Source: an uncultured bacterium (GTDB lineage Bacteria; Patescibacteriota; Minisyncoccia; Phycocordibacterales; CAIZLB01). From it: DNA of 64,000 bases. Location of the stretch: positions 14,915 to 78,914 of the forward strand of contig CAINHC010000001.1 in NCBI GenBank assembly GCA_903848795.1, given 5' to 3'. The position numbers were made by a program, and so were the translations under genes. A model generated the notes under the pieces. It was not told the DNA's origin. It saw only the letters and a list, made by a program, of their open reading frames with translations, and did not search any database. Of the stretch, positions 14,042 through 52,685 are shown one piece after another (the first letter of the stretch is position 1; every line of letters begins with the position of its first letter).

Positions 14042-14107
14042 CATTTATATAAAACAATATTTGAATCTAAATTTTGCTTGCCAACACAAAAAAGTTAGAC
14101 AATTCCC

Positions 14108-15463
14108 CTAAAGCGCCATTTTCACCACATCCACAATCTGCTCAATAGACAATCTATCTTGTGTAGCCGAATCTCTATATCTCAAAGTCATGGTTTGATC
14201 CTTTTCTACTGTGTCAAAATCCACGGTTATACAATATGGTGTACCGATTTCATCTTGTCTTCTATATCTTTTACCAATGTTTCCATTATCATCAAACATT
14301 ATTCTTCCAGGGAATTCCTTCTTCAGCATTGAATACACTTCCCTAGCCTTCTCGACTAGTTGTGGCTTATTTTTTAGCAATGGAGAAACCGCAATCAAAA
14401 CTGGTGCAATCCTTGGTGACAACTTTAGATAAACTCTTTTCTCTCCGCCAACTTCATCTTCAGAATAAGCATCGGTAAGCACCGCTAACACTGTTCTGTC
14501 CACTCCAAGTGATGGCTCAATACAATGTGGAATAAATCGCTCTTTTGTTTCCTCATCAAAGAAAGACAGATCGGTTCCCGATGCATCAGAGTGACTCTTT
14601 AAATCGAAGTCTGTTCTATAAGCAAGACCGTAAAGCTCTTTTTGACCCATTGGAAAATCAAACTCAAAGTCTATTGTGCGCTTTGAATAGTGAGCTAGGT
14701 CCTCGGGTGCAATTTCTACATCGTGAATTTTAGCAGGAGTTAGACCAACATCATCAGCGAAAGCGTGCACCTGTTGTCTAAAATGCTCAAAAGACTCTTC
14801 CCAACTATTTGGATTAACAAAATACTCTATTTCCATTTGCTCAAACTCACGAGTTCTGAATATAAAATCACGAGGAGCAATCTCATTTCTAAATGCCTTT
14901 CCGATTTGTGCCATACCAAATGGTAGCTTCGGATGGAATGAGTCTAGGGTATTCTTGAAGTTTACAAACATTCCTTGTGCAGTTTCTGGGCGAAGATATG
15001 AGACAGAATCTTCATCTTGATTTGCACCAACATGCGTTGTGAACATCATCTTGAATTGTCTAACATCGCCAAGCGCATTACCTTCTGGACTCTTAATTCC
15101 CTTTTCTTTGATAGCAGAGTCCATTTCCTTAAGTGACATTCCTTTGATATCAACACCGGCCTCTTGTAGTAAGTGATCAGCTCTGTATCTTTTGTTAGTT
15201 TTTATATCATCAACAAGTGGGTCAAAGAATCCCGCAACGTGACCACTCGCCTTCCAAACATTTTGATTCATTAGAATTGCAGCATCGACTCCATACATAT
15301 CGTCTCTATCTAGCACAAAACGCTTCCACCAAGTGTTCTTGATGTTGTTCTTTAGTGCAAGTCCTAGATGCCCATAGTCCCAAGTTCCAGCGAGACCTCC
15401 ATAAATTTCCGAACCTTGGTATATAAAACCTCGTCTTTTAGCTAATGCAATTATTTCTTCCAT
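14108..15463 (-). CDS. glyQS: glycyl-tRNA synthetase (class II, alpha2 type)
   Basis: N-terminal MEEIIALAKRRGFIYQGSEIYGGLAGTWDYGHLG…, class II core and C-terminal anticodon-binding domain. 451 aa. Confidence 0.9.
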   Translation of the reverse strand: MEEIIALAKRRGFIYQGSEIYGGLAGTWDYGHLGLALKNNIKNTWWKRFVLDRDDMYGVDAAILMNQNVWKASGHVAGFFDPLVDDIKTNKRYRADHLLQEAGVDIKGMSLKEMDSAIKEKGIKSPEGNALGDVRQFKMMFTTHVGANQDEDSVSYLRPETAQGMFVNFKNTLDSFHPKLPFGMAQIGKAFRNEIAPRDFIFRTREFEQMEIEYFVNPNSWEESFEHFRQQVHAFADDVGLTPAKIHDVEIAPEDLAHYSKRTIDFEFDFPMGQKELYGLAYRTDFDLKSHSDASGTDLSFFDEETKERFIPHCIEPSLGVDRTVLAVLTDAYSEDEVGGEKRVYLKLSPRIAPVLIAVSPLLKNKPQLVEKAREVYSMLKKEFPGRIMFDDNGNIGKRYRRQDEIGTPYCITVDFDTVEKDQTMTLRYRDSATQDRLSIEQIVDVVKMAL

Positions 15464-18059: not shown

Positions 18060-18130
18060 CTAGATACTGCATATCAAAATACCGCACAAGTGTTCGGCTT
18101 CAAAAGCGAATGCTCAAACACCTGGAAAAT

Positions 18131-18736: not shown

Positions 18737-21700
18737 TTATTTTACAGGTCTAATAATAAACCTTACCTCTTGATCACCCACAGATACAGCTTCCCCTCCC
18801 TCAAAATCCTGAAGGATTAGACTTTCAGCCAGCACAGTTTTAGAAATCATCTTGGAATATTTTTCTATCAACATCTTTCCAACATTCGAATCTTCAATTT
18901 CCAAAATTATTTTGTCTTGTGGAGAAAAACCAAATGCTTTTCTAGCTTCTTGAACAGCTCTAATTAAATCTCTGGACATTCCCTCTTCTTTCAAATCTTC
19001 AGTTAATGCAGTATCAAGTATAATTTCATTTCCAATAGCAACACTTTTTACATTCAACTCGTCTTTTATAATTTCTTCCAAATCCTTACTCAATGACTTA
19101 CCTTCCTTGTTATTGTAGATGAAGGATGCTAAAGGTTGTCTAACCTTCAATTGAGACTTAGCACGAAGTGACAATCCAGCTTCAACCAAAGCTCTTGCTG
19201 ATTCCATATTCGAAAGTAGTATTTCCTCCTTTTCAGAAAGCGCACCCAAATCTGGCCATTTTTCTAAGTGAACACTTAGCATTCCGTTCTCTGTATTTGC
19301 GGATGCATTTATTTGGTCACAATCGACAACTTTAACTTTCTGATACAAGTCTTCAGCAGAAAATGGCACAGCTGGTGCTATCAATTTTGAAAAATTTAAC
19401 AAAACAGCACGGAGGGTGGATATAGCAAAATCTCTATCAACAACATTGTCACCCTTGAATCTATCTCTAGATCTTCTTAAGTACCAAGTAGATAAATCAT
19501 CAATGAACGAAGCAATTGGTCGAATCGCTTTAGAAATCATATAAGCATCCAAATCTCTGGTCATATCAGAATTCAACTTTTTCAATCTTGCCCAAATCCA
19601 TTGATCTAGAACATTTTCAGATTTAAGTGAACAGAAGCTGTGCACGGAATCCTCCCCAGACATCTCTGAATATGTTTTATAGAATGTATAAACATTATCC
19701 AATCTATTAAATATTTTTTTATTAATCTCGTCCAGTGACTTTTCAGAAAAAGAGACTTCCTCTGCAGTTACCGCAGGAGAAGTAACAAGGAAATATCGAA
19801 GTGAGTCTGCACCATACTTCTCAACCACCCCCATTAACTCTGGATAGTTATTCAAGCTCTTCGCCATCTTTCTTCCATCTTCCGCCAAAATCAAACCGTT
19901 TACAGAAACATTTTTGAATGGAGACTTACCAAACAAGCTCACTCCCAAACATAGTAGCGAATAAAACCAACCACGAGTCTGATCTAGTCCCTCAGCAATA
20001 AAGTCAGCTGGAAATAGTTTACTATCAGCCTTTTCAAACTCTTCTTTGTTTTCAAATGGATAGTGTTGTGAGGCAAACGGCATAGATCCAGAATCGTACC
20101 AAACATCAAAGACATCGGGGATTCTTCTCATGATTTCTCCGTCCTCATTTTTCCAAGTAATGGAATCAATTAGCGGTCTGTGAATATCTAACTCAAAGTT
20201 TTCAGTATGAGGCCATTGCACAAAATCAATATAGTGAAGTGAGCCATTTGGATCGGATGCATCGTGCCATCCACTTCTAATCATGTCTCGTGTCGTTCTT
20301 CCATTAGCAACCTCCTTCATCATTCTAATTGGCAAACCGTGGGCGACAATAAGAATGTTCTCATCCTTGTTTACTGAATCTATTTCATACAAACACTCAG
20401 CTACACGTCTTTTAACTTCAGCAACAGACTCGCCTCCTGCAGGTTTTGCAAAAATTCTCTGATCTTCTGTTTTAAAATCTGCCAACCTTTCATCCCAAGA
20501 ACGACCCTCCAACTCTCCTCCGTCACACTCCCTGAGGCGTACATCATAAATTATTTTTGATTCCTCCAACCCAAGAGCTTCTGCAATAATCTTTGCAGAC
20601 TCTTTTGTTCTTCTAAAATCAGAAGCGTAGATTTTTGTTATTGCACGATTATTGCCACTAGCTACGACGTTTTCAGATACCCCACTATTCTTTAATTTAT
20701 CCGCAGATTCCTTAATTTGCGTAATCCCCTTTTCAGTTAAACCATAGAGATTCAAATCATGGGAATTTATAATACCCCTTACATTTGACTCGGCCTCTCC
20801 ATGTCGCATCAGAACATATTTATTATTATTTGAACCCTGCCTAATCTTTTCTTTCAGCTCTGCAAAAGATCCGATTATTTCTGTCTTACCACTTTCAGAT
20901 TTCCACATTGGAACAGGAGCACCCCAATATCTGGTCCTTGAAATTGCCCAGTCTCTTATGTTTTCCAACCACTCACCAAAACGGCCAGAGCCGATTTCTT
21001 TTGGCACCCAGTTTATTTTATTATTTTCTGTGATCAATTCGTTTTTCAAAGACGTAGTCCTTACAAATAAACTTGTTGTTGCAAAGTTTATAAGCGGAGT
21101 CTCGCATCTCCAACAATGAGGATACGAGTGAATCATCTTTTCTTTTGCAAGAAGAACTCCCTTACCCGCCAAGATTTTTATTATTTCAACATCCGCACTT
21201 TGATGATCCTCTTTTGGCTTTGCTGGCTTACCCTTCATTTCAGTTATTAAATCAACAAAACATCCATCAAATCCAACGTGCTTAATGACAGGAAGATTAT
21301 TAGCCTTAGATAGCTTCATATCATCATCCCCATAAGCTGGCGCGATATGTACAATTCCAGTTCCGTCTTCCGCTGTGACAAAAGCAGCGTCGCAAACCTT
21401 CCAAATATTTTGTCTATTCTTTTCAGACGTTTCTAGTGTCCCCTCTTTTTTATAATAGTCAAAAACAGGCTCGTATGAAATACCAACCAAATCTTTTCCA
21501 AGTAGTGGCTTATTAAAGTCTATTAAAGGAAACACGACACAATCCTCAGGAATTACCTTTTTATTTTTTAAAGTTTCCAAAAGACTTTCTGCAAAGATAT
21601 AATTTTCTGCGCTAACTACGCCATCCGCGCCAGCTGGCGCCTTAACAGAAACACAAACGTAATTCAATTCTGGGTTCACTGCAAGAGCTACGTTTCCAGG

Positions 21701-22570
21701 GAGTGTCCATGGGGTTGTTGTCCAGGCTACAAAAGATGTTTTGGAACCTGCCGTCGAACCGTCACCTAGATTATAAAAAGATTTAATAACGCCAAGCGAG
21801 TCTTCCTTGATTTCAAATTTTACAAAGACTGAAATATCAGCAATGTCCTTATAGCCCTGTGCCACCTCAAAGTTTGAAAGTGGAGTTCCACAACGAGGGC
21901 AAATTTGCATCACTTTGTAGTCTTCGAATACCAAACCCTTTTTATTCAACTCACTAAATGACCACCAAACAGACTCTGTGTAACTTGAGTCCATTGTTCT
22001 GTAGTCATTGTCCATATCAGACCACCTACCAATTCTTTGCATTCTATCTTTCCACTCTCCTGTGTATTCCAAAACACTTTCTCTTGCAGCATTGTTAAAT
22101 TTATCAATACCGTATTCTTCAATAGCTTTCTTATCCTTCAAGCCAAGCTTTTTTTCTATCAAGTTTTCAATAGGTAGACCGTGACAATCCCACCCCCACT
22201 TTCTATCAACATGAAATCCACGCATGGTTTTATATCTCGGCATTAAATCCTTTAGGGAATTTGGCAAAATATGTCCGTAGTGAGGAAGACCTGTTGCATA
22301 AGGAGGTCCATCATAAAATACGAATTCCCCAAATGGTGCGTCCTTTTTAAGAGTTTGTTCAAAAATATGATTCTCATTCCAGAAAGCAAGTACGGCTTTT
22401 TCTTTTGTTGAAATTGCACTAACCGCAGTATCTGTGGTACCCGTAGCGTTTGTAATGTTTGCGGAATTTGTGACACCAGCTTTTTTATTAGTCTCAGACT
22501 TAGTTTGAACGGGTAGCCCTACCCCGTTTTGGCTTTTATCTTCGGCCAAATCATTTTGTTTTGAAGTCAT
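18737..22570 (-). CDS. ileS: isoleucyl-tRNA synthetase carrying an inserted histidine-phosphatase (PGM-like) domain and N-terminal low-complexity extension
   Basis: PPYATGLPHYGH (HIGH), CP1 region, WAISRTRYWGAPVP, DVWYDSGSMPF, KMAKS. Between aa ~583-782 (nt ~20225-20824) sits a ~200-aa segment beginning NKYVLMRHGEAESN, the RHG catalytic motif of histidine phosphatase branch 1. Single uninterrupted ORF of 1277 aa. Confidence 0.9.
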   Translation of the reverse strand: MTSKQNDLAEDKSQNGVGLPVQTKSETNKKAGVTNSANITNATGTTDTAVSAISTKEKAVLAFWNENHIFEQTLKKDAPFGEFVFYDGPPYATGLPHYGHILPNSLKDLMPRYKTMRGFHVDRKWGWDCHGLPIENLIEKKLGLKDKKAIEEYGIDKFNNAARESVLEYTGEWKDRMQRIGRWSDMDNDYRTMDSSYTESVWWSFSELNKKGLVFEDYKVMQICPRCGTPLSNFEVAQGYKDIADISVFVKFEIKEDSLGVIKSFYNLGDGSTAGSKTSFVAWTTTPWTLPGNVALAVNPELNYVCVSVKAPAGADGVVSAENYIFAESLLETLKNKKVIPEDCVVFPLIDFNKPLLGKDLVGISYEPVFDYYKKEGTLETSEKNRQNIWKVCDAAFVTAEDGTGIVHIAPAYGDDDMKLSKANNLPVIKHVGFDGCFVDLITEMKGKPAKPKEDHQSADVEIIKILAGKGVLLAKEKMIHSYPHCWRCETPLINFATTSLFVRTTSLKNELITENNKINWVPKEIGSGRFGEWLENIRDWAISRTRYWGAPVPMWKSESGKTEIIGSFAELKEKIRQGSNNNKYVLMRHGEAESNVRGIINSHDLNLYGLTEKGITQIKESADKLKNSGVSENVVASGNNRAITKIYASDFRRTKESAKIIAEALGLEESKIIYDVRLRECDGGELEGRSWDERLADFKTEDQRIFAKPAGGESVAEVKRRVAECLYEIDSVNKDENILIVAHGLPIRMMKEVANGRTTRDMIRSGWHDASDPNGSLHYIDFVQWPHTENFELDIHRPLIDSITWKNEDGEIMRRIPDVFDVWYDSGSMPFASQHYPFENKEEFEKADSKLFPADFIAEGLDQTRGWFYSLLCLGVSLFGKSPFKNVSVNGLILAEDGRKMAKSLNNYPELMGVVEKYGADSLRYFLVTSPAVTAEEVSFSEKSLDEINKKIFNRLDNVYTFYKTYSEMSGEDSVHSFCSLKSENVLDQWIWARLKKLNSDMTRDLDAYMISKAIRPIASFIDDLSTWYLRRSRDRFKGDNVVDRDFAISTLRAVLLNFSKLIAPAVPFSAEDLYQKVKVVDCDQINASANTENGMLSVHLEKWPDLGALSEKEEILLSNMESARALVEAGLSLRAKSQLKVRQPLASFIYNNKEGKSLSKDLEEIIKDELNVKSVAIGNEIILDTALTEDLKEEGMSRDLIRAVQEARKAFGFSPQDKIILEIEDSNVGKMLIEKYSKMISKTVLAESLILQDFEGGEAVSVGDQEVRFIIRPVK

Positions 22571-23266: not shown

Positions 23267-23343
23267 CCGGTGGACGATTCTCCAAAATCGTCGTTTGGAC
23301 GATTCTCCAAAATCGCCCAGTAGGTGATTCACCAGAATCATCG
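23267..23343. repeat. tandem and palindromic GATTC-N-GAATC-type repeats upstream of mntA-hepT
   Basis: ggaCGATTCTCCAAAATCG occurs twice 26 bp apart, followed by GGTGATTCACCAGAATCA palindrome. Homologous ~100-bp block at 33229-33335. Confidence 0.6.
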
Positions 23344-25164
23344 TTACATCCTACTTGGCACCTTAATTCCCAAAACATTCAAACCATTAGTTAATACAGT
23401 CAGTACCGCCTTAGTTAGCAGAACCTTATATGGAGTCAAAATATCTCCCTCTACAACAATTTGAGTATTAGCATAAAAGGAATTAAATTCAGATGCGATG
23501 TCCAGCAAATATTGTCCAACATAATGGGGGGCATGTTCAGTCTCAGATCGCAAAAGGACCTCAGGGAATCTTACAAGCATCTTTTCTAACTTACCTCCCG
23601 CCCAATCTAGTTGGCAGATTTTTGGACTATTTGCATTATTCAAATCATTGTTCAAATCTCCTAGATTAATATCCTCCACGTTAATTGAAACACCCTGCTT
23701 CTTTGCTTTTTCTAATACAGATTTAGCACGCACACAAGAATATTGAAGGTATGGTCCCGAGTCACCCTCAAATGAAAGGGATTTTTGTGGATCAAATATT
23801 ATGTCCTTTCCAATTGTTTGTCTAAGTATCGTATATTTGATTGCCGCAACAGCGATTTGCTCTGCAATTTCCTTTCGCTCCCCAGCCCCAATCTCACGTT
23901 CTTTCATTTTTTCTAGTGCCAACTCAGTCATGTCATGCAGCATCGATTCCCCCGTAACAACATCTCCGGTTCTTGAAGACATCTTTCCTGTAGTCAGACG
24001 GAGCATTCCGTGTGATAGGTGAAAATTCTTCTTTGCAATTTCTGGATAAATTTGTTCAATGGCTTTATAAGAAACAGCCAAGACATTATCTTGTTCGTTA
24101 GCAGTAATTGTATAGGAAATATCGTATGGATCTTTATTGTATTTTAGAAGTGCCAAACCTACTTCCTTTGCCTCATAAGTCGGTAGACCAAATTTGTTTA
24201 TGAATACACGAGTGTTTAGTCCATAGTTTTCTCCCTTAAAGATAATAGCCCCTTCACTCTCTTCAAAAATCCCACTCTTTATTCCTTTCTGAACTTCCTC
24301 AAGCCCCACCACCGAGCTATCACTCTCAAAGAAATACTCGTTGAATTTAGTTCCAAGTACTTTGTAAATTTCCTCGAAGTGATCCATGCTCCATTTCTTT
24401 CCTAAATCATACAGAGCATTCATTTCGAAATCAGACTTATCATAAATCTTTTTATTTATTTCTTGAACAATAGCTTCATCCTCTGGATGATCCTTAAAAT
24501 GAGTTGCGCCTTTTGCGTATATTTTCCCCAAAAAGGCAACTTTATCGCTAAGTGACATTGAATCACTTGGCCACTCCATTCCCTCTTCCTTTTTTAGTAA
24601 ATCAAAACCGTAGAATGTAAAAGCAACATGCCTACCAACGTCCCCCTGATAGCAATATCTTTTAACATTTCCCCCAGACCACTCCCCAATTCTAGCCAAA
24701 GACTCACCGATTGCATTCGACATAAGATGCCCAATATGAAATTGTTTAAATGGGTTAGGGTCTGTATACTCGTAAATCATTTTCTTGCCATTGTGCAAGT
24801 TTGATTTTCCATAATTTTCTCCTCCTGACCCACCCTTAGTTTCATCCAATATTTCTTTTATCAATTCCAACGTAACCTCCTCCGTCATATAGAAGTTAAT
24901 GAATCCAGGACCCGCCACTTCAACTTTTTTAACACCACTCAATGAACCCCCAGAAATAAACACCTGAAGCTTTTCTAAAATTTGATTCGCTAACTCCACC
25001 GGCTTCACGCCAAGCTTTGGCGCCAATATCATAGCTACATTTGTCGAATAATCTCCATGAGATAAATCCCCCGGTCTGTCCAGTAGATTCTTTCCAGTCA
25101 AAAAATCGTCCTGCCCATGCTCTGAGACGGCCCCTAATATAGCTTCAATAATAACTTTATTCAT
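23344..25164 (-). CDS. argS: arginyl-tRNA synthetase
   Basis: 606 aa. HIGH-region (FHIGH-like LMSNAIGES…), ArgRS N-terminal add-1 domain, C-terminal DALR anticodon-binding domain ending in Met. Confidence 0.85.
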   Translation of the reverse strand: MNKVIIEAILGAVSEHGQDDFLTGKNLLDRPGDLSHGDYSTNVAMILAPKLGVKPVELANQILEKLQVFISGGSLSGVKKVEVAGPGFINFYMTEEVTLELIKEILDETKGGSGGENYGKSNLHNGKKMIYEYTDPNPFKQFHIGHLMSNAIGESLARIGEWSGGNVKRYCYQGDVGRHVAFTFYGFDLLKKEEGMEWPSDSMSLSDKVAFLGKIYAKGATHFKDHPEDEAIVQEINKKIYDKSDFEMNALYDLGKKWSMDHFEEIYKVLGTKFNEYFFESDSSVVGLEEVQKGIKSGIFEESEGAIIFKGENYGLNTRVFINKFGLPTYEAKEVGLALLKYNKDPYDISYTITANEQDNVLAVSYKAIEQIYPEIAKKNFHLSHGMLRLTTGKMSSRTGDVVTGESMLHDMTELALEKMKEREIGAGERKEIAEQIAVAAIKYTILRQTIGKDIIFDPQKSLSFEGDSGPYLQYSCVRAKSVLEKAKKQGVSINVEDINLGDLNNDLNNANSPKICQLDWAGGKLEKMLVRFPEVLLRSETEHAPHYVGQYLLDIASEFNSFYANTQIVVEGDILTPYKVLLTKAVLTVLTNGLNVLGIKVPSRM

Positions 25165-33228: not shown

Positions 33229-33335
33229 AGGTGGGCGATTCTCAAAAATCCCCCACTGAAAGAGAATGCTGGCGATTCTGCTGAATCGTAACCAAAATTA
33301 TTATTTGGGTGATTACCCAAAATATTCGTGATAAA
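33229..33335. repeat. intergenic block of palindromic repeats homologous to 23267-23343
   Basis: gggCGATTCTCAAAAATC …tgGCGATTCTGCTGAATCG… GGGTGATTACCCAAAAT, same order of three units as upstream of mntA. Confidence 0.6.
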
Positions 33336-46390: not shown

Positions 46391-46463
46391 GGGCGATTAG
46401 CTCAGTTGGTAGAGCAACTCATTTACACTGAGAAGGTCAGGGGTTCGAGTCCCTTATCGCCCA
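46391..46463 (+). tRNA. tRNA-Val (TAC)
   Basis: Acceptor GGGCGAT/ATCGCCC, D-arm GCTC-AGTTGGTA-GAGC, anticodon loop TTTACAC, T-loop TTCGAGT. Confidence 0.85.
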
Positions 46464-46473
46464 CAAAACAAAA

Positions 46474-46501
46474 ATAACAGGAATTTATTCCTGTTATTTT
46501 T
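46474..46501 (+). terminator. terminator after tRNA-Val
   Basis: AACAGGAATttaTTCCTGTT + TTTTTCG. Confidence 0.55.
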
Positions 46502-46652
46502 CGTTTGTGTTGGGGCGATAGGAGGTGCCTTGAGTCACCTCCGCAAGGGACGAGAAAAGCTTTGCTATATTTTCGAGAATCTGAAAGATTCGAGAAAATT
46601 GCAAAGGTGTACTGGGGCTGCGATTCAGCAGAATCGCCTACTGGGTAAGCCC

Positions 46653-46672
46653 CGAGTCCCTTATCGCCCACA
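46653..46672. repeat. direct repeat of the tRNA-Val 3' end (CGAGTCCCTTATCGCCCACA), 20/20 identical to 46446-46465
   Basis: Exact 20-bp copy of T-loop-to-3'-end sequence located 187 bp downstream of the tRNA, an att-like arrangement. Confidence 0.75.
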
Positions 46673-46680
46673 ATTCACTC

Positions 46681-46794
46681 AAAACTCCGCTTCTATTGAA
46701 TGCACACCAATTTTCTGCTGAAAATTCGATTTCCGTCGACAGGAAATCGCCCGCTCGTTGCAACTCGCAAGGCATTCAATAGAAGCGGAGTTTT
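46681..46794. repeat. second perfect 23-bp-stem hairpin with homologous loop (TTC-TGCT-GAA mini-hairpin plus GATTTCC-GTCGACA-GGAAATC palindrome)
   Basis: AAAACTCCGCTTCTATTGAATGC (46681-46703) is the exact reverse complement of 46772-46794. The loop contains CCAATTTTCTGCTGAAAATTCG and ends …CTCGCAAG like the 44224 element. Confidence 0.7.
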
Positions 46795-46950
46795 TCGTTC
46801 ATGGGTATTTTGTAAAAAAATTCGATGATTGGAATTATTTTATCACCCTGCTTTCGCTTTTGAAGCCGAACACTTATCTTATTTTATAAGTAAAAAACTT
46901 CCAAAAAAATCCTCCGCCACAAAAGATAATATCCTTATCCAATGAACGAA

Positions 46951-47073
46951 TTTGTGCTCTCGGTAGGAATCTTCCCCTACGGGGACGGTACAGGTTTCGT
47001 ATTGTGCTCGCTATGCTTCGCACAATATACTCAACCTTTTCGATTCCTACACGCAAGCCGATCAATCGGCTTG
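46951..47073. repeat. tRNA-Arg(TCT)-linked structured insert plus 22-bp copy of the tRNA 3' end (46951-46972), ~90% identical (inverted) to 52553-52685
   Basis: ATTTGTGCTCTCGGTAGGAATC at 46951-46972 equals 47103-47124 (reverse complement of the tRNA 3' end). Intervening sequence forms nested stems (GTAGGAATC/GATTCCTAC, AGGTT/AACCT, TATTGTGC/GCACAATA, CCCC-GTA-GGGG). Confidence 0.7.
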
Positions 47074-47107
47074 CTCTCGAGCCCAAAATTAAAACGCCTT
47101 TCGGCGT

Positions 47108-47179
47108 TTTAATATTTGTGCTCTCGGTAGGAATCGAACCTACATTAACGGCTTAGAAGTCCGCAGTTCTATCCATTGA
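47108..47179 (-). tRNA. tRNA-Arg (TCT), with A31-G39 mismatch in anticodon stem
   Basis: Acceptor GCTCTTG/CGAGAGC, D-arm GTTC-AATGGATA-GAAC, anticodon loop CTTCTAA, T-arm GTAGG-TTCGATT-CCTAC. Terminator hairpin AAAACGCCgaaaGGCGTTTT follows on the minus strand. Confidence 0.65.
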
Positions 47180-47213
47180 ACTACAAGAGCATGCATGTAC
47201 AATAGCATATTTT

Positions 47214-49927: not shown

Positions 49928-50809
49928 CTATTTCAACTTTGTACCATTTGGCAAACTCTTGCTTGGATTAAGTAGGGCAATATTTTTACCGTCACCTCCA
50001 GCCAATATCATAGCTTGGCTTTCTTGTCCCATCATCATTCTAGGGGCCAAGTTTGTAACAAAGGGAAACTGCTTTCCAACCAGATCTACAGCATCAACAT
50101 GTCTTGCTATTCCAGAAAGAACCTGTCGTGGCCTTTCTTCACCAAAATCAACTGAAAGTTTTAGTAATTTATCAGAACCTTCTATGTTTTCAACTACTAA
50201 AATTTGGCCCATTTTTATCTCTACCTTTAGAAAATCGTCAATCGATATATAATCTGATGTTTTACTGACCCCAGCCTCCGCCTTTGGATTTTCCAATGTT
50301 TCCGTTTGGGTATTATTATCAATATTGTTATCCTTTATTTCTGTATCTTGTGATTGTGTATTCATATTTTTAAATTTTATTCTATCCAAATAACTTTGTA
50401 AAATGATCGCCGCTGCCGATGCGTCTACATTCTTGTTTTCACCCTGGAACTTAGTAGCCTGAACCGTGGAGTATAATTCTGGTTCATAAACAACATTAAA
50501 CCCAGCCTCTTCCAGTTTTGACCCAAAAAATCTAGCATCTACCATGATTGTATTATCAACCCCCTTGAGATCTACTGAGTGTCCAATTATAGCGGTTTGA
50601 GCCTGCCGGTCTTTTAGAATATCAACTACCTCCTGTACAGCCTGCTTTATTCTTTCCTCTCTCTTGTCTATGTCGTGACCAAAACCAGCGACAACAGTCA
50701 ATGGGAAGGCCAACAGTCCAAGCACGTCTCCGACCGCTACGCCAATCCTCTTTGATCCAAAATCTAGGCCAATTATTCTTTTATTTATTTCGGAAACGTC
50801 TTTATTCAT
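49928..50809 (-). CDS. ruvX: RuvX/YqgF pre-16S rRNA nuclease fused to a C-terminal Trbp111/CsaA-type tRNA-binding domain
   Basis: N-terminal IGLDFGSKRIGVAVGD…DASAAAIILQSYLD (YqgF). C-terminal IDDFLKVEIKMGQILVVENIEGSDKLLKLSVDFGEE-RQVLSGIARHV…LVGKQFPFVTNLAPRMMMGQESQAMILAG (PF01588 tRNA_bind pattern). Confidence 0.8.
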   Translation of the reverse strand: MNKDVSEINKRIIGLDFGSKRIGVAVGDVLGLLAFPLTVVAGFGHDIDKREERIKQAVQEVVDILKDRQAQTAIIGHSVDLKGVDNTIMVDARFFGSKLEEAGFNVVYEPELYSTVQATKFQGENKNVDASAAAIILQSYLDRIKFKNMNTQSQDTEIKDNNIDNNTQTETLENPKAEAGVSKTSDYISIDDFLKVEIKMGQILVVENIEGSDKLLKLSVDFGEERPRQVLSGIARHVDAVDLVGKQFPFVTNLAPRMMMGQESQAMILAGGDGKNIALLNPSKSLPNGTKLK

Positions 50810-52440: not shown

Positions 52441-52512
52441 GCTCTCGTCGTTCAATGGATAGGACATGACTTTGCGGAAGTTAAAATGTAGGTTCGATTC
52501 CTACCGGGAGCA
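52441..52512 (+). tRNA. tRNA-Arg (GCG anticodon)
   Basis: Acceptor GCTCTCG/CGGGAGC, D-arm GTTC-AATGGATA-GGAC, anticodon arm TGACT-TTGCGGA-AGTTA, T-arm identical to the other tRNA-Arg. Terminator AAAAAACACCctaaGGTGTTTTTT follows. Confidence 0.65.
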
Positions 52513-52552
52513 CATGAAAATAAAAAACACCCTAAGGTGTTTTTTATTTTTC

Positions 52553-52685
52553 GGGCGAGCGAAGAAGCTAATTTATTAGCTTCTGTGTAGAAATCGAAAA
52601 GGTTGAGTATATTGTGCGATGCGTAGCGAGCACAATACGAAACCTATACCGTCCCTGTAAGGGAAGATTCCTACCGGGGGCACAA
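52553..52685. repeat. tRNA-Arg(GCG)-linked structured insert plus 19-bp copy (52667-52685, 1 mismatch) of the tRNA 3' end, homologous to 46951-47073
   Basis: GTGTAGAAATCGAAAAGGTTGAGTATATTGTGCGATGCGTAGCGAGCACAATACGAAACCTATACCGTCCCTGTAAGGGAAGATTCCTACCGGGGGCACA is the near-exact reverse complement of 46973-47053 plus the flank. Confidence 0.7.

Follow-up and report, generated by a model that had tools for sequence, protein, structure and literature searches.

A folded, gene-less insert of about 170 bp at the 3′ ends of tRNA-Arg and tRNA-Val genes in a small-genome bacterium

Partial copies of tRNA genes flank integrated elements, and the integrase-less cis-mobilizable elements (CIMEs) keep both attL and attR (bioRxiv 10.1101/2020.12.28.424599; PMC5704250). 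The insert described here resembles the tRNA-targeting integrative elements (tyrosine-integrase prophages, islands, and tycheposons) in that it follows a tRNA gene and is framed by direct copies of the tRNA 3′ segment, provides the functional end of that tRNA while displacing the old one, and occurs among relatives in which empty and filled alleles coexist. However, it carries neither integrase nor cargo or gene remnants and comprises only about 170 bp; unlike such elements and CIMEs, it also has a conserved, covarying interior fold that base-pairs with the att copy, and its minimal form recurs at several sites. To our knowledge, the described CIMEs are gene-sized or larger and, should the insert be mobile, no smaller site-specific integrating unit is known.

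A different kind of site is used by the CTX phage and by integron cassettes, in which folded hairpins leave a direct/inverted/direct topology after integration. By analogy, the insert could be compared with integron attC and CTX-phage attP(+), since it presents the order direct core, body, inverted core, spacer, and direct core, and an imperfect hairpin stem that reproduces the target duplex and whose sequence is free to vary if pairing is kept. In contrast to these sites, it harbors no GTTRRRY/RYYYAAC core and no dif-like site, its target is a tRNA gene, the shared segment has about 20 nt instead of about 7, and a dependence on IntI or Xer would be only hypothetical. The tRNA-like domain of tmRNA and the Y-RNA-like YrlA offer another likeness, in which the 5′ and 3′ ends pair and an acceptor-like stem is set on a T-stem-like helix, most clearly in the tRNA-Val insert; the 3′ end of the insert body is tRNA-like as well, and includes CCA in the contig L069. 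However, the insert differs from these RNAs in lacking a T-loop, in replacing the D- and anticodon arms by one hairpin, in its invisibility to ARAGORN and Rfam, and in the degenerate acceptor helix of two Arg copies out of four. Finally, MITEs and small palindromic repeats share with it the small size, the absence of coding sequence, the folding, the inverted-repeat ends, and the variation between strains, but its flanking repeat of 18–22 nt is a functional part of a tRNA rather than a short target duplication, its fold is branched rather than a simple hairpin, and only one to three copies were seen.

The window analyzed in this study, a stretch of 64,000 nucleotides with a GC content of about 37%, is part of the chromosome of an uncultured, small-genome bacterium known from metagenomes of lakes and probably akin to the candidate phyla radiation. 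The neighboring genes encode PilM-type pilus proteins, a RuvX/tRNA-binding fusion, S20, RuvA, Fpg, several aminoacyl-tRNA synthetases, and RecA. A class I tRNA synthetase of the isoleucyl/leucyl type with 1277 aa (18737-22570, minus strand) contains a histidine-phosphatase domain (His_Phos_1) inserted at residues 586-769, and the fusion of RuvX (YqgF) with a tRNA-binding domain (49928-50809, minus strand) was found in the window and in most relatives, whereas in L005 (4133-5011) both parts are separate adjacent genes.

The tRNA-Arg(GCG) gene (52441..52513, plus strand) forms an intact cloverleaf (ARAGORN; 58.1 bits with the Rfam tRNA model) and ends in ...GGGAGCAC, and the tRNA-Arg(TCT) gene (47118..47190, minus strand), also intact (ARAGORN; 66 bits), ends in ...GAGAGCAC; as read directly from the sequence, CCA is encoded in neither of them. 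Both methods assigned the isotypes and anticodons Arg(gcg) and Arg(tct). The GCG anticodon had been pointed out as unusual in the preliminary description, and indeed it replaces the usual ACG; however, it was found in every recovered relative carrying the gene, which makes it characteristic of the lineage and independent of the insert. tRNA-Arg(GCG) has its D-arm, T-arm, and acceptor stem in common with tRNA-Arg(TCT).

At both Arg loci, the insert follows the same order in the sense of the tRNA: the tRNA, a terminator hairpin, a body of ~134 nt, and an 18–22-nt copy of the tRNA 3′ end (hereafter, the tail). This agrees with the initial proposal that the second tRNA-Arg carried a homologous insert of ~130 bp plus a 3′-end repeat, and the insert, of about 170 bp, extends beyond the block first described to include the terminator hairpin beside the tRNA. 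Three tRNA genes of the window carry one (Arg TCT, Arg GCG, and Val). At the GCG locus, the first part of the insert is a terminator-like hairpin (52517..52550, plus strand; a 94% palindrome, recovered also by DNA folding) composed of A-rich and T-rich arms (AAATAAAAAACACCC TAAG GGTGTTTTTTATTT). Its counterpart at the TCT locus (47088..47113, minus strand) was detected by a terminator scan and by DNA folding (z-score −6.4), and the alignment of both hairpins revealed one compensatory change from G-C to A-T. The arms of the TCT terminator extend into the gene, the GAGC of the tRNA pairing with the GCTC at the start of the element.

The body at the GCG locus (copy 2; 52552..52685, plus strand) scored 157 bits with covariance model R1 and presented a fold z-score of −4.75, being delimited also by alignment and pair counts. 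It comprises hairpin 1 (52563-52584), the 5′ strand of P2, a T-stem-like helix (52587-52595), P3 (52600-52645), P4 (52652-52664), and the 3′ strand of P2 together with the tail (52666-52685, plus strand). The body at the TCT locus (copy 1; 46952..47085, minus strand) reached 167 bits with the same model and a folding energy of −57.1 kcal/mol (z-score −6.9), with hairpin 1 at 47053-47074, P2 formed by 47042-47050 and 46963-46971, P3 at 46992-47037, P4 at 46973-46985, and the tail at 46952-46971 (minus strand). The TCT body ends in an exact copy of the 3′ end of its own tRNA (GATTCCTACCGAGAGCACAAAT, 22/22), and the GCG body ends in GATTCCTACCGGGGGCACA, with one mismatch to its own tRNA. Direct repeats of 18–22 nt from the 3′ part of the tRNA flank the inserts of Arg(TCT), Arg(GCG), and Val, as well as those of L058 and L069, and the shared segment spans from the T-loop to just past the discriminator base.

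A repeat search identified the two Arg copies as inverted arms of 137 nt (46952-47088 and 52549-52685) with 85% complementarity. Pairwise alignment showed 113 identical positions out of 134 between the bodies (84%) and 93 out of 101 (92%) in the core (46952-47052 and 52585-52685), so that the identity of ~90% first proposed holds for the core. The tRNA-Arg genes are identical at 53 of 73 positions (73%), differing mostly in the anticodon arm and variable loop, which confirms that the insert is more conserved than the tRNAs. The 5′ third, with hairpin 1 and the terminator, is far more diverged than the core, with its pairing kept. A 28-mer of the core occurs twice in the window, against zero expected in shuffled sequences. 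Since the locus was 100% identical in five independent assemblies (L010-L014), the arrangement is not an assembly artefact. The only open reading frame overlapping the inserts, a 70-aa frame with a TTG start across the TCT copy (46874-47086), is taken as spurious, and the insert is devoid of coding genes.

The preliminary description had further presented the element as targeting tRNA-Arg; however, the element is not Arg-specific, as an insert with the same layout was revealed by repeat search and blast at tRNA-Val(TAC) (46391..46464, plus strand). This gene encodes no CCA in the window, and in L001 and L002 its CCA is encoded and the insert is absent. The tRNA-Val insert (46465..46673, plus strand) contains a long terminator hairpin (46470-46501) and a body of 162 nt (46512-46673), both on the plus strand. 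The body starts with GGGGCGATA, which matches the 5′ acceptor strand of tRNA-Val, and its last 21 nt (46653-46673) repeat the 3′ end of tRNA-Val exactly. Its predicted fold (−71.9 kcal/mol, z-score −6.9) is composed of an 8-bp acceptor-like stem, one hairpin, a 6-bp T-stem-like helix, and two hairpins in the place of the T-loop, and the palindrome of this insert runs into tRNA-Val. In each insert, the terminator hairpin reaches with its arms into the acceptor strand of the tRNA, and the order is tail, hairpin, anti-tail (the strand pairing with the tail), structured spacer, and tail. The layout is kept in the Val insert, with the arms re-matched to tRNA-Val. Sequence homology between the Val and Arg bodies was suspected and then rejected, as their local alignment was no better than that of shuffled sequences; because the layout is shared without significant sequence similarity, the common descent of these bodies is at most putative.

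The Arg and Val bodies folded better than shuffled controls, with z-scores ranging from −4.7 to −6.9. A structure model was obtained by aligning the four distinct Arg copies, resulting in four helices, hairpin 1, P2, P3, and P4. P2 is a long-range helix between GUAGGAAUC and GAUUCCUAC, the second strand being the tail, and P3 has an apical loop of 12 nt, partly conserved, as well as a GA/GA internal loop, for which hammerhead, K-turn, and loop-E interpretations were considered and received no model support. In the four-helix structure, 96% of the cells were paired, against 30–45% when the partners were slid. Among these four sequences, both sides had changed in 10 of 41 pairs, a number reached by none of 500 shuffles, and RNAalifold independently recovered the same helices, with 11 covarying pairs. 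These compensatory changes, together with the fact that the TCT ortholog of the sister genome is better conserved than its flanks (see below), indicate that the fold is under selection. Since its closing helix pairs tail with anti-tail, the fold imitates the stacked T-stem/acceptor helix of its tRNA; in the fold model, a two-hairpin module occupies the place of the T-loop, and one hairpin replaces the D and anticodon arms.

The covariation is equally compatible with folded DNA and with RNA, and the fold would have been kept by selection either as a recombination substrate or as a transcribed tRNA-like small RNA. The second possibility leads to an explanation that we consider unlikely, in which the insert would be a resident small-RNA gene, whose product, a tRNA-like ncRNA, would be transcribed together with the tRNA through read-through, or else derive from it by processing. 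The closing helix would then confer tRNA-type processing of the 5′ and 3′ ends and stability, a local duplication of the tRNA 3′ region would have given rise to the gene, and loss and allele exchange, rather than mobility of its own, would account for its patchy presence. The strong compensatory change with conserved loop sequences, the conservation of the orthologous copy above that of the flanking DNA, the CCA at the end of the L069 tail, and the clean 8-bp acceptor helix with a 6-bp T-stem in the Val body are in favor of such a gene. In addition, L001 has a second terminator after the body, resembling the native one of L002; when read as a circle, the insert would have the form of a complete small transcription unit (body, tRNA-like 3′ end, and terminator), and this circularly permuted succession of body and terminator also speaks for a small-RNA gene. 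However, no sigma-70-like promoter was predicted before any copy, and each body is preceded by a terminator. Moreover, helix 1, the acceptor-like one, is only 75% paired, being poor or absent in copy 2 and L069, and no Rfam, tRNA, or tmRNA model matched. The single-sided changes gave G-U pairs twice on the sense and twice on the antisense strand, favoring neither of them; a sense-strand RNA, initially deduced from two G-U pairs in L001, was withdrawn when the inclusion of L069 and copy 2 resulted in this 2:2 split. Lastly, transfer between sites is still required to explain why the cores are nearly identical at two unlinked tRNA-Arg loci and in a distant relative.

The distribution of the insert was assessed in syntenic contigs of relatives, fetched by means of the neighboring 160-aa and 87-aa proteins. 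Both Arg loci were empty in at least seven distinct syntenic relatives (L002-L005, L007, L008, L067/L068, and L072/L073), and the GCG site, the sole Arg locus recovered from L006, was also empty there. In L002, only 44 bp separate tRNA-Val from tRNA-Arg(TCT). Because syntenic relatives have empty sites, the inserts are insertions. In the sister genome L001 (= L058), of about 84% DNA identity, the TCT site was filled and the GCG site was empty; its TCT copy was 92.5% identical to that of the window, against 83.6% for the surrounding 5.6 kb, and its 10 differences either fell in loops or left the pairing intact. Such conservation in place, above the background, speaks against mobility alone and for a role of the insert at its locus. 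L069, in which the neighboring protein is 72% identical to that of the window, is a distant relative with a full element at the GCG site only, whereas closer relatives are empty. Besides these, L009 presented the left end of a diverged element at the GCG site, where the contig breaks off, and L066 presented a degenerate relative of the element. The preliminary description had argued for independent insertion, gene conversion, or a functional RNA rather than for duplication of a tRNA locus, and this is supported by the empty sites, the presence at TCT only in L058, the presence at GCG only in L069 with closer relatives empty, and the compensatory changes in the fold. With such a patchy presence, the insert has the behavior of an integrating element of unusually small size or of a small-RNA gene that is mobile. 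Part of the patchiness could derive from repeated losses of an old insert by way of its direct repeats. The metagenome contigs L009 (3520-3600) and L071 (755-824) both end inside the element, which suggests that it disrupts assembly and that those populations contain it in several copies or in polymorphic form.

A direct repeat of a tRNA 3′ end with an element-borne tRNA end is the classic signature of tRNA-integrating elements, and other small repeats crowd the spacer that separates tRNA-Val from tRNA-Arg. Both features would be in line with an inert scar, in which conventional prophages or integrative elements, once integrated into these tRNA genes, lost their interior and left only the joined left and right arms. 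We regard this origin as very unlikely, since the same minimal, cargo-less form was found at every site, in a count of five full copies in four genomes plus the left end of a sixth (in full at the TCT, GCG, and Val sites of the window, the TCT site of L058, and the GCG site of L069; in part at the GCG site of L009). Furthermore, ten compensatory pair changes and a conservation above that of the flanks would not be expected of a decaying scar, and remnants of an integrase ORF are lacking.

The junctions of the insert are informative on how the tRNA end is exchanged. In L069, the near copy, which is part of the tRNA, reads ...GGGAGCAC and passes directly into the element (GCAC/ATCAAC) without CCA, and the far copy reads ...GGGAGCACCA (GCACCA) and is followed by flanking DNA. 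The filled allele of L009 and the empty allele of L008 are 99.8% identical over 2.7 kb; of the five mismatches, four are confined to the final 30 nt of the tRNA, beyond which the divergence is complete. From the L069 junctions and these mismatches, it follows that the insert brings along the 3′ end now used by the tRNA and displaces the former one. As the L009 mosaic extends to positions upstream of the T-arm, it fits homologous allele replacement better than a fixed crossover site. The insert-bearing tRNAs have no CCA, and most empty alleles in relatives encode it. However, CCA loss as a mark specific to the insert proved only partly true, since most tRNAs of this genome lack it: six of the seven tRNA genes of the window (43489, 46391, 47118, 50954, 52441, and 56495) do not encode CCA, tRNA-His being the only one that does, and several relatives encode CCA on the same tRNAs. 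L058, at its GCG gene, and L008 are empty and yet also devoid of CCA, and these could represent former insertion sites.

The reading that we favor, at about even confidence, is that of a miniature non-autonomous cassette of ~170 bp, inserted at tRNA 3′ ends, with a body mimicking the acceptor/T-arm helix of the tRNA. Such a cassette would enter by recombination within the shared segment of ~20 nt, whereby the tRNA would gain a CCA-less 3′ end and a terminator, and the old 3′ end would be pushed to the far side, where it would close the fold. This topology is of the Campbell type, as for integrase elements targeting tRNA genes. Upon integration, the tRNA and the body would exchange their terminators, and the recombining enzyme would have to act in trans. 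A double-stranded circle of 165 bp would be implausibly small as an excision product. Since the repeats that bound it match the target exactly, the insert could also be spread or removed by the uptake of foreign alleles or by homologous gene conversion from one tRNA gene to another, and gene conversion through these repeats would explain both the spread among tRNA-Arg genes and the L009 mosaic without a dedicated enzyme. Taken as a whole, the cassette is real, selected, and accessory, and it is best filed as an extremely small form of the tRNA-integrating elements.

The succession of a direct copy, a short body, an inverted copy, a structured spacer, and a direct copy is also the post-integration topology of a folded-hairpin site, and the arms are re-matched between the Arg and Val versions with the layout kept. 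By analogy, the tail and anti-tail might act as the specificity determinants of a structure- or RNA-guided cassette, a reading to which we attach a slim probability. In its DNA form, a folded single strand would rebuild the target duplex, as in integron attC and CTX-phage attP; in its RNA form, a scaffold similar to the TnpB omega RNA or the IS110 bridge RNA would be followed by ~20 nt at the 3′ end matching the tRNA after the GGTTC of the T-loop, and the combination of a stem-loop, 2 nt, and a 20-nt segment identical to the target does resemble a guide-RNA design. However, these resemblances are topological, and the segment that would serve as guide is engaged in base pairs of the fold. The window ORFs scanned included no recombinase, TnpB, or IS110 gene, the attC core motifs are absent, and the Rfam models of transposon-associated RNAs gave nothing. 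A related proposal, which we hold to be improbable, is that of a cassette without protein genes that encodes its own target, in which tail and anti-tail would rebuild the T-stem/acceptor duplex as DNA or RNA and a recombinase provided in trans would carry out the exchange between this copy and the actual tRNA gene, so that re-matching the two arms, as between Arg and Val, would retarget the cassette. If true, tRNA genes of a reduced genome would be subject to a logic like that of attC or of a bridge RNA, and the cassette might in addition be a mobile small RNA that mimics tRNA.

Rfam, at gathering and permissive thresholds on both loci, returned only tRNAs and chance matches, and neither ARAGORN nor the Rfam tRNA and tmRNA models (clan CL00001) matched any body at E-values up to 1–10. 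No recombinase or transposase was found in the insert or among the 28 window ORFs scanned with Pfam, which also revealed no tnpA or tnpB, and no known transposon-associated RNA was matched in Rfam. Group II intron fragments and retron RNAs were rejected, as there was no Rfam match and no reverse transcriptase among the scanned ORFs. Direct reading of the sequence showed no attC cores (RYYYAAC/GTTRRRY), the insert ends being tRNA-derived (GTAGGAATC / GATTCCTACC...). An exact 28-mer search of species genomes, too strict for diverged copies, matched only the sister L001, and the metagenome pattern CGAAAAGGNNGAGTAN{20,45}ACGAAANNCC gave 21 chance matches and no element, being blind to divergent copies because GAGTA is not conserved, as shown by L069. 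These two narrow scans, the latter of which would miss even L069, yielded no larger autonomous relative. Four scans of viral contigs returned nothing or chance matches only, and blastn against phage and plasmid collections returned nothing relevant. In 234 kb of relatives, model R1 recovered the known copies only, plus weak alignments of 10–14 bits to tRNA-Arg genes.

Other small repeats and insertions were observed around these tRNA genes. The spacer between tRNA-Val and tRNA-Arg(TCT) has 653 bp in the window, all of it inserted material, compared with the 44 bp of L002. It includes a second structure, element B (46674-46800), in which a perfect inverted repeat of 23–27 bp (AAAACTCCGCTTCTATTGAATGC ...) surrounds three small hairpins and the motif GCTCGTTGCAACTCGCAAG, with a fold z-score of about −8 on both strands. 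A homologue of element B with a covarying stem lies directly after tRNA-Arg(GCG) in L066, and in both the window and L066 the element abuts a tRNA-type 3′ end (CAC/AATTCACTCA); it has the appearance of another small palindromic insert, of a second type, that targets tRNA 3′ ends. The region between the Val and Arg tails (46674-46950) has inverted AATTC..GTTCATKGG ends, one of which is interrupted by element B, and the segment 46853-46875 recurs at 18088-18110. A family of short hairpin repeats (GGCGATTC-NNNN-GAATCGCC) was found at 23271-23345, where it forms three tandem 25-nt units, and at 33232-33330, 14096-14120, and 46616-46638; one copy is nested in hairpin P4 of the Val element and another in the degenerate element of L066. 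In L006 (1-9979 and 10590-11596), an island encoding a large serine recombinase, ParB-methyltransferases, and an SduA_C-domain protein replaces the region upstream of the 160-aa gene, and the DNA after tRNA-Arg(GCG) is foreign too, including a 196-aa ORF without a Pfam match.

Partial tRNA copies are routinely taken for the scars of integrated elements. Here, the whole "element" is a conserved and covarying structure of ~170 bp that base-pairs with the att copy it carries, and its arms are matched to each of the three tRNA genes at which the insert recurs. The inserts swap the encoded tRNA 3′ end, removing CCA, and add terminators, and thus affect the annotation of tRNAs; they also coincide with contig ends in metagenome assemblies (L009 and L071). 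If the insert is mobile, it would offer a compact system for finding out what a tRNA-targeting recombinase recognizes. If it is instead a small RNA, it would constitute an undescribed tRNA-mimicking RNA in a reduced-genome lineage with few known non-coding RNAs.
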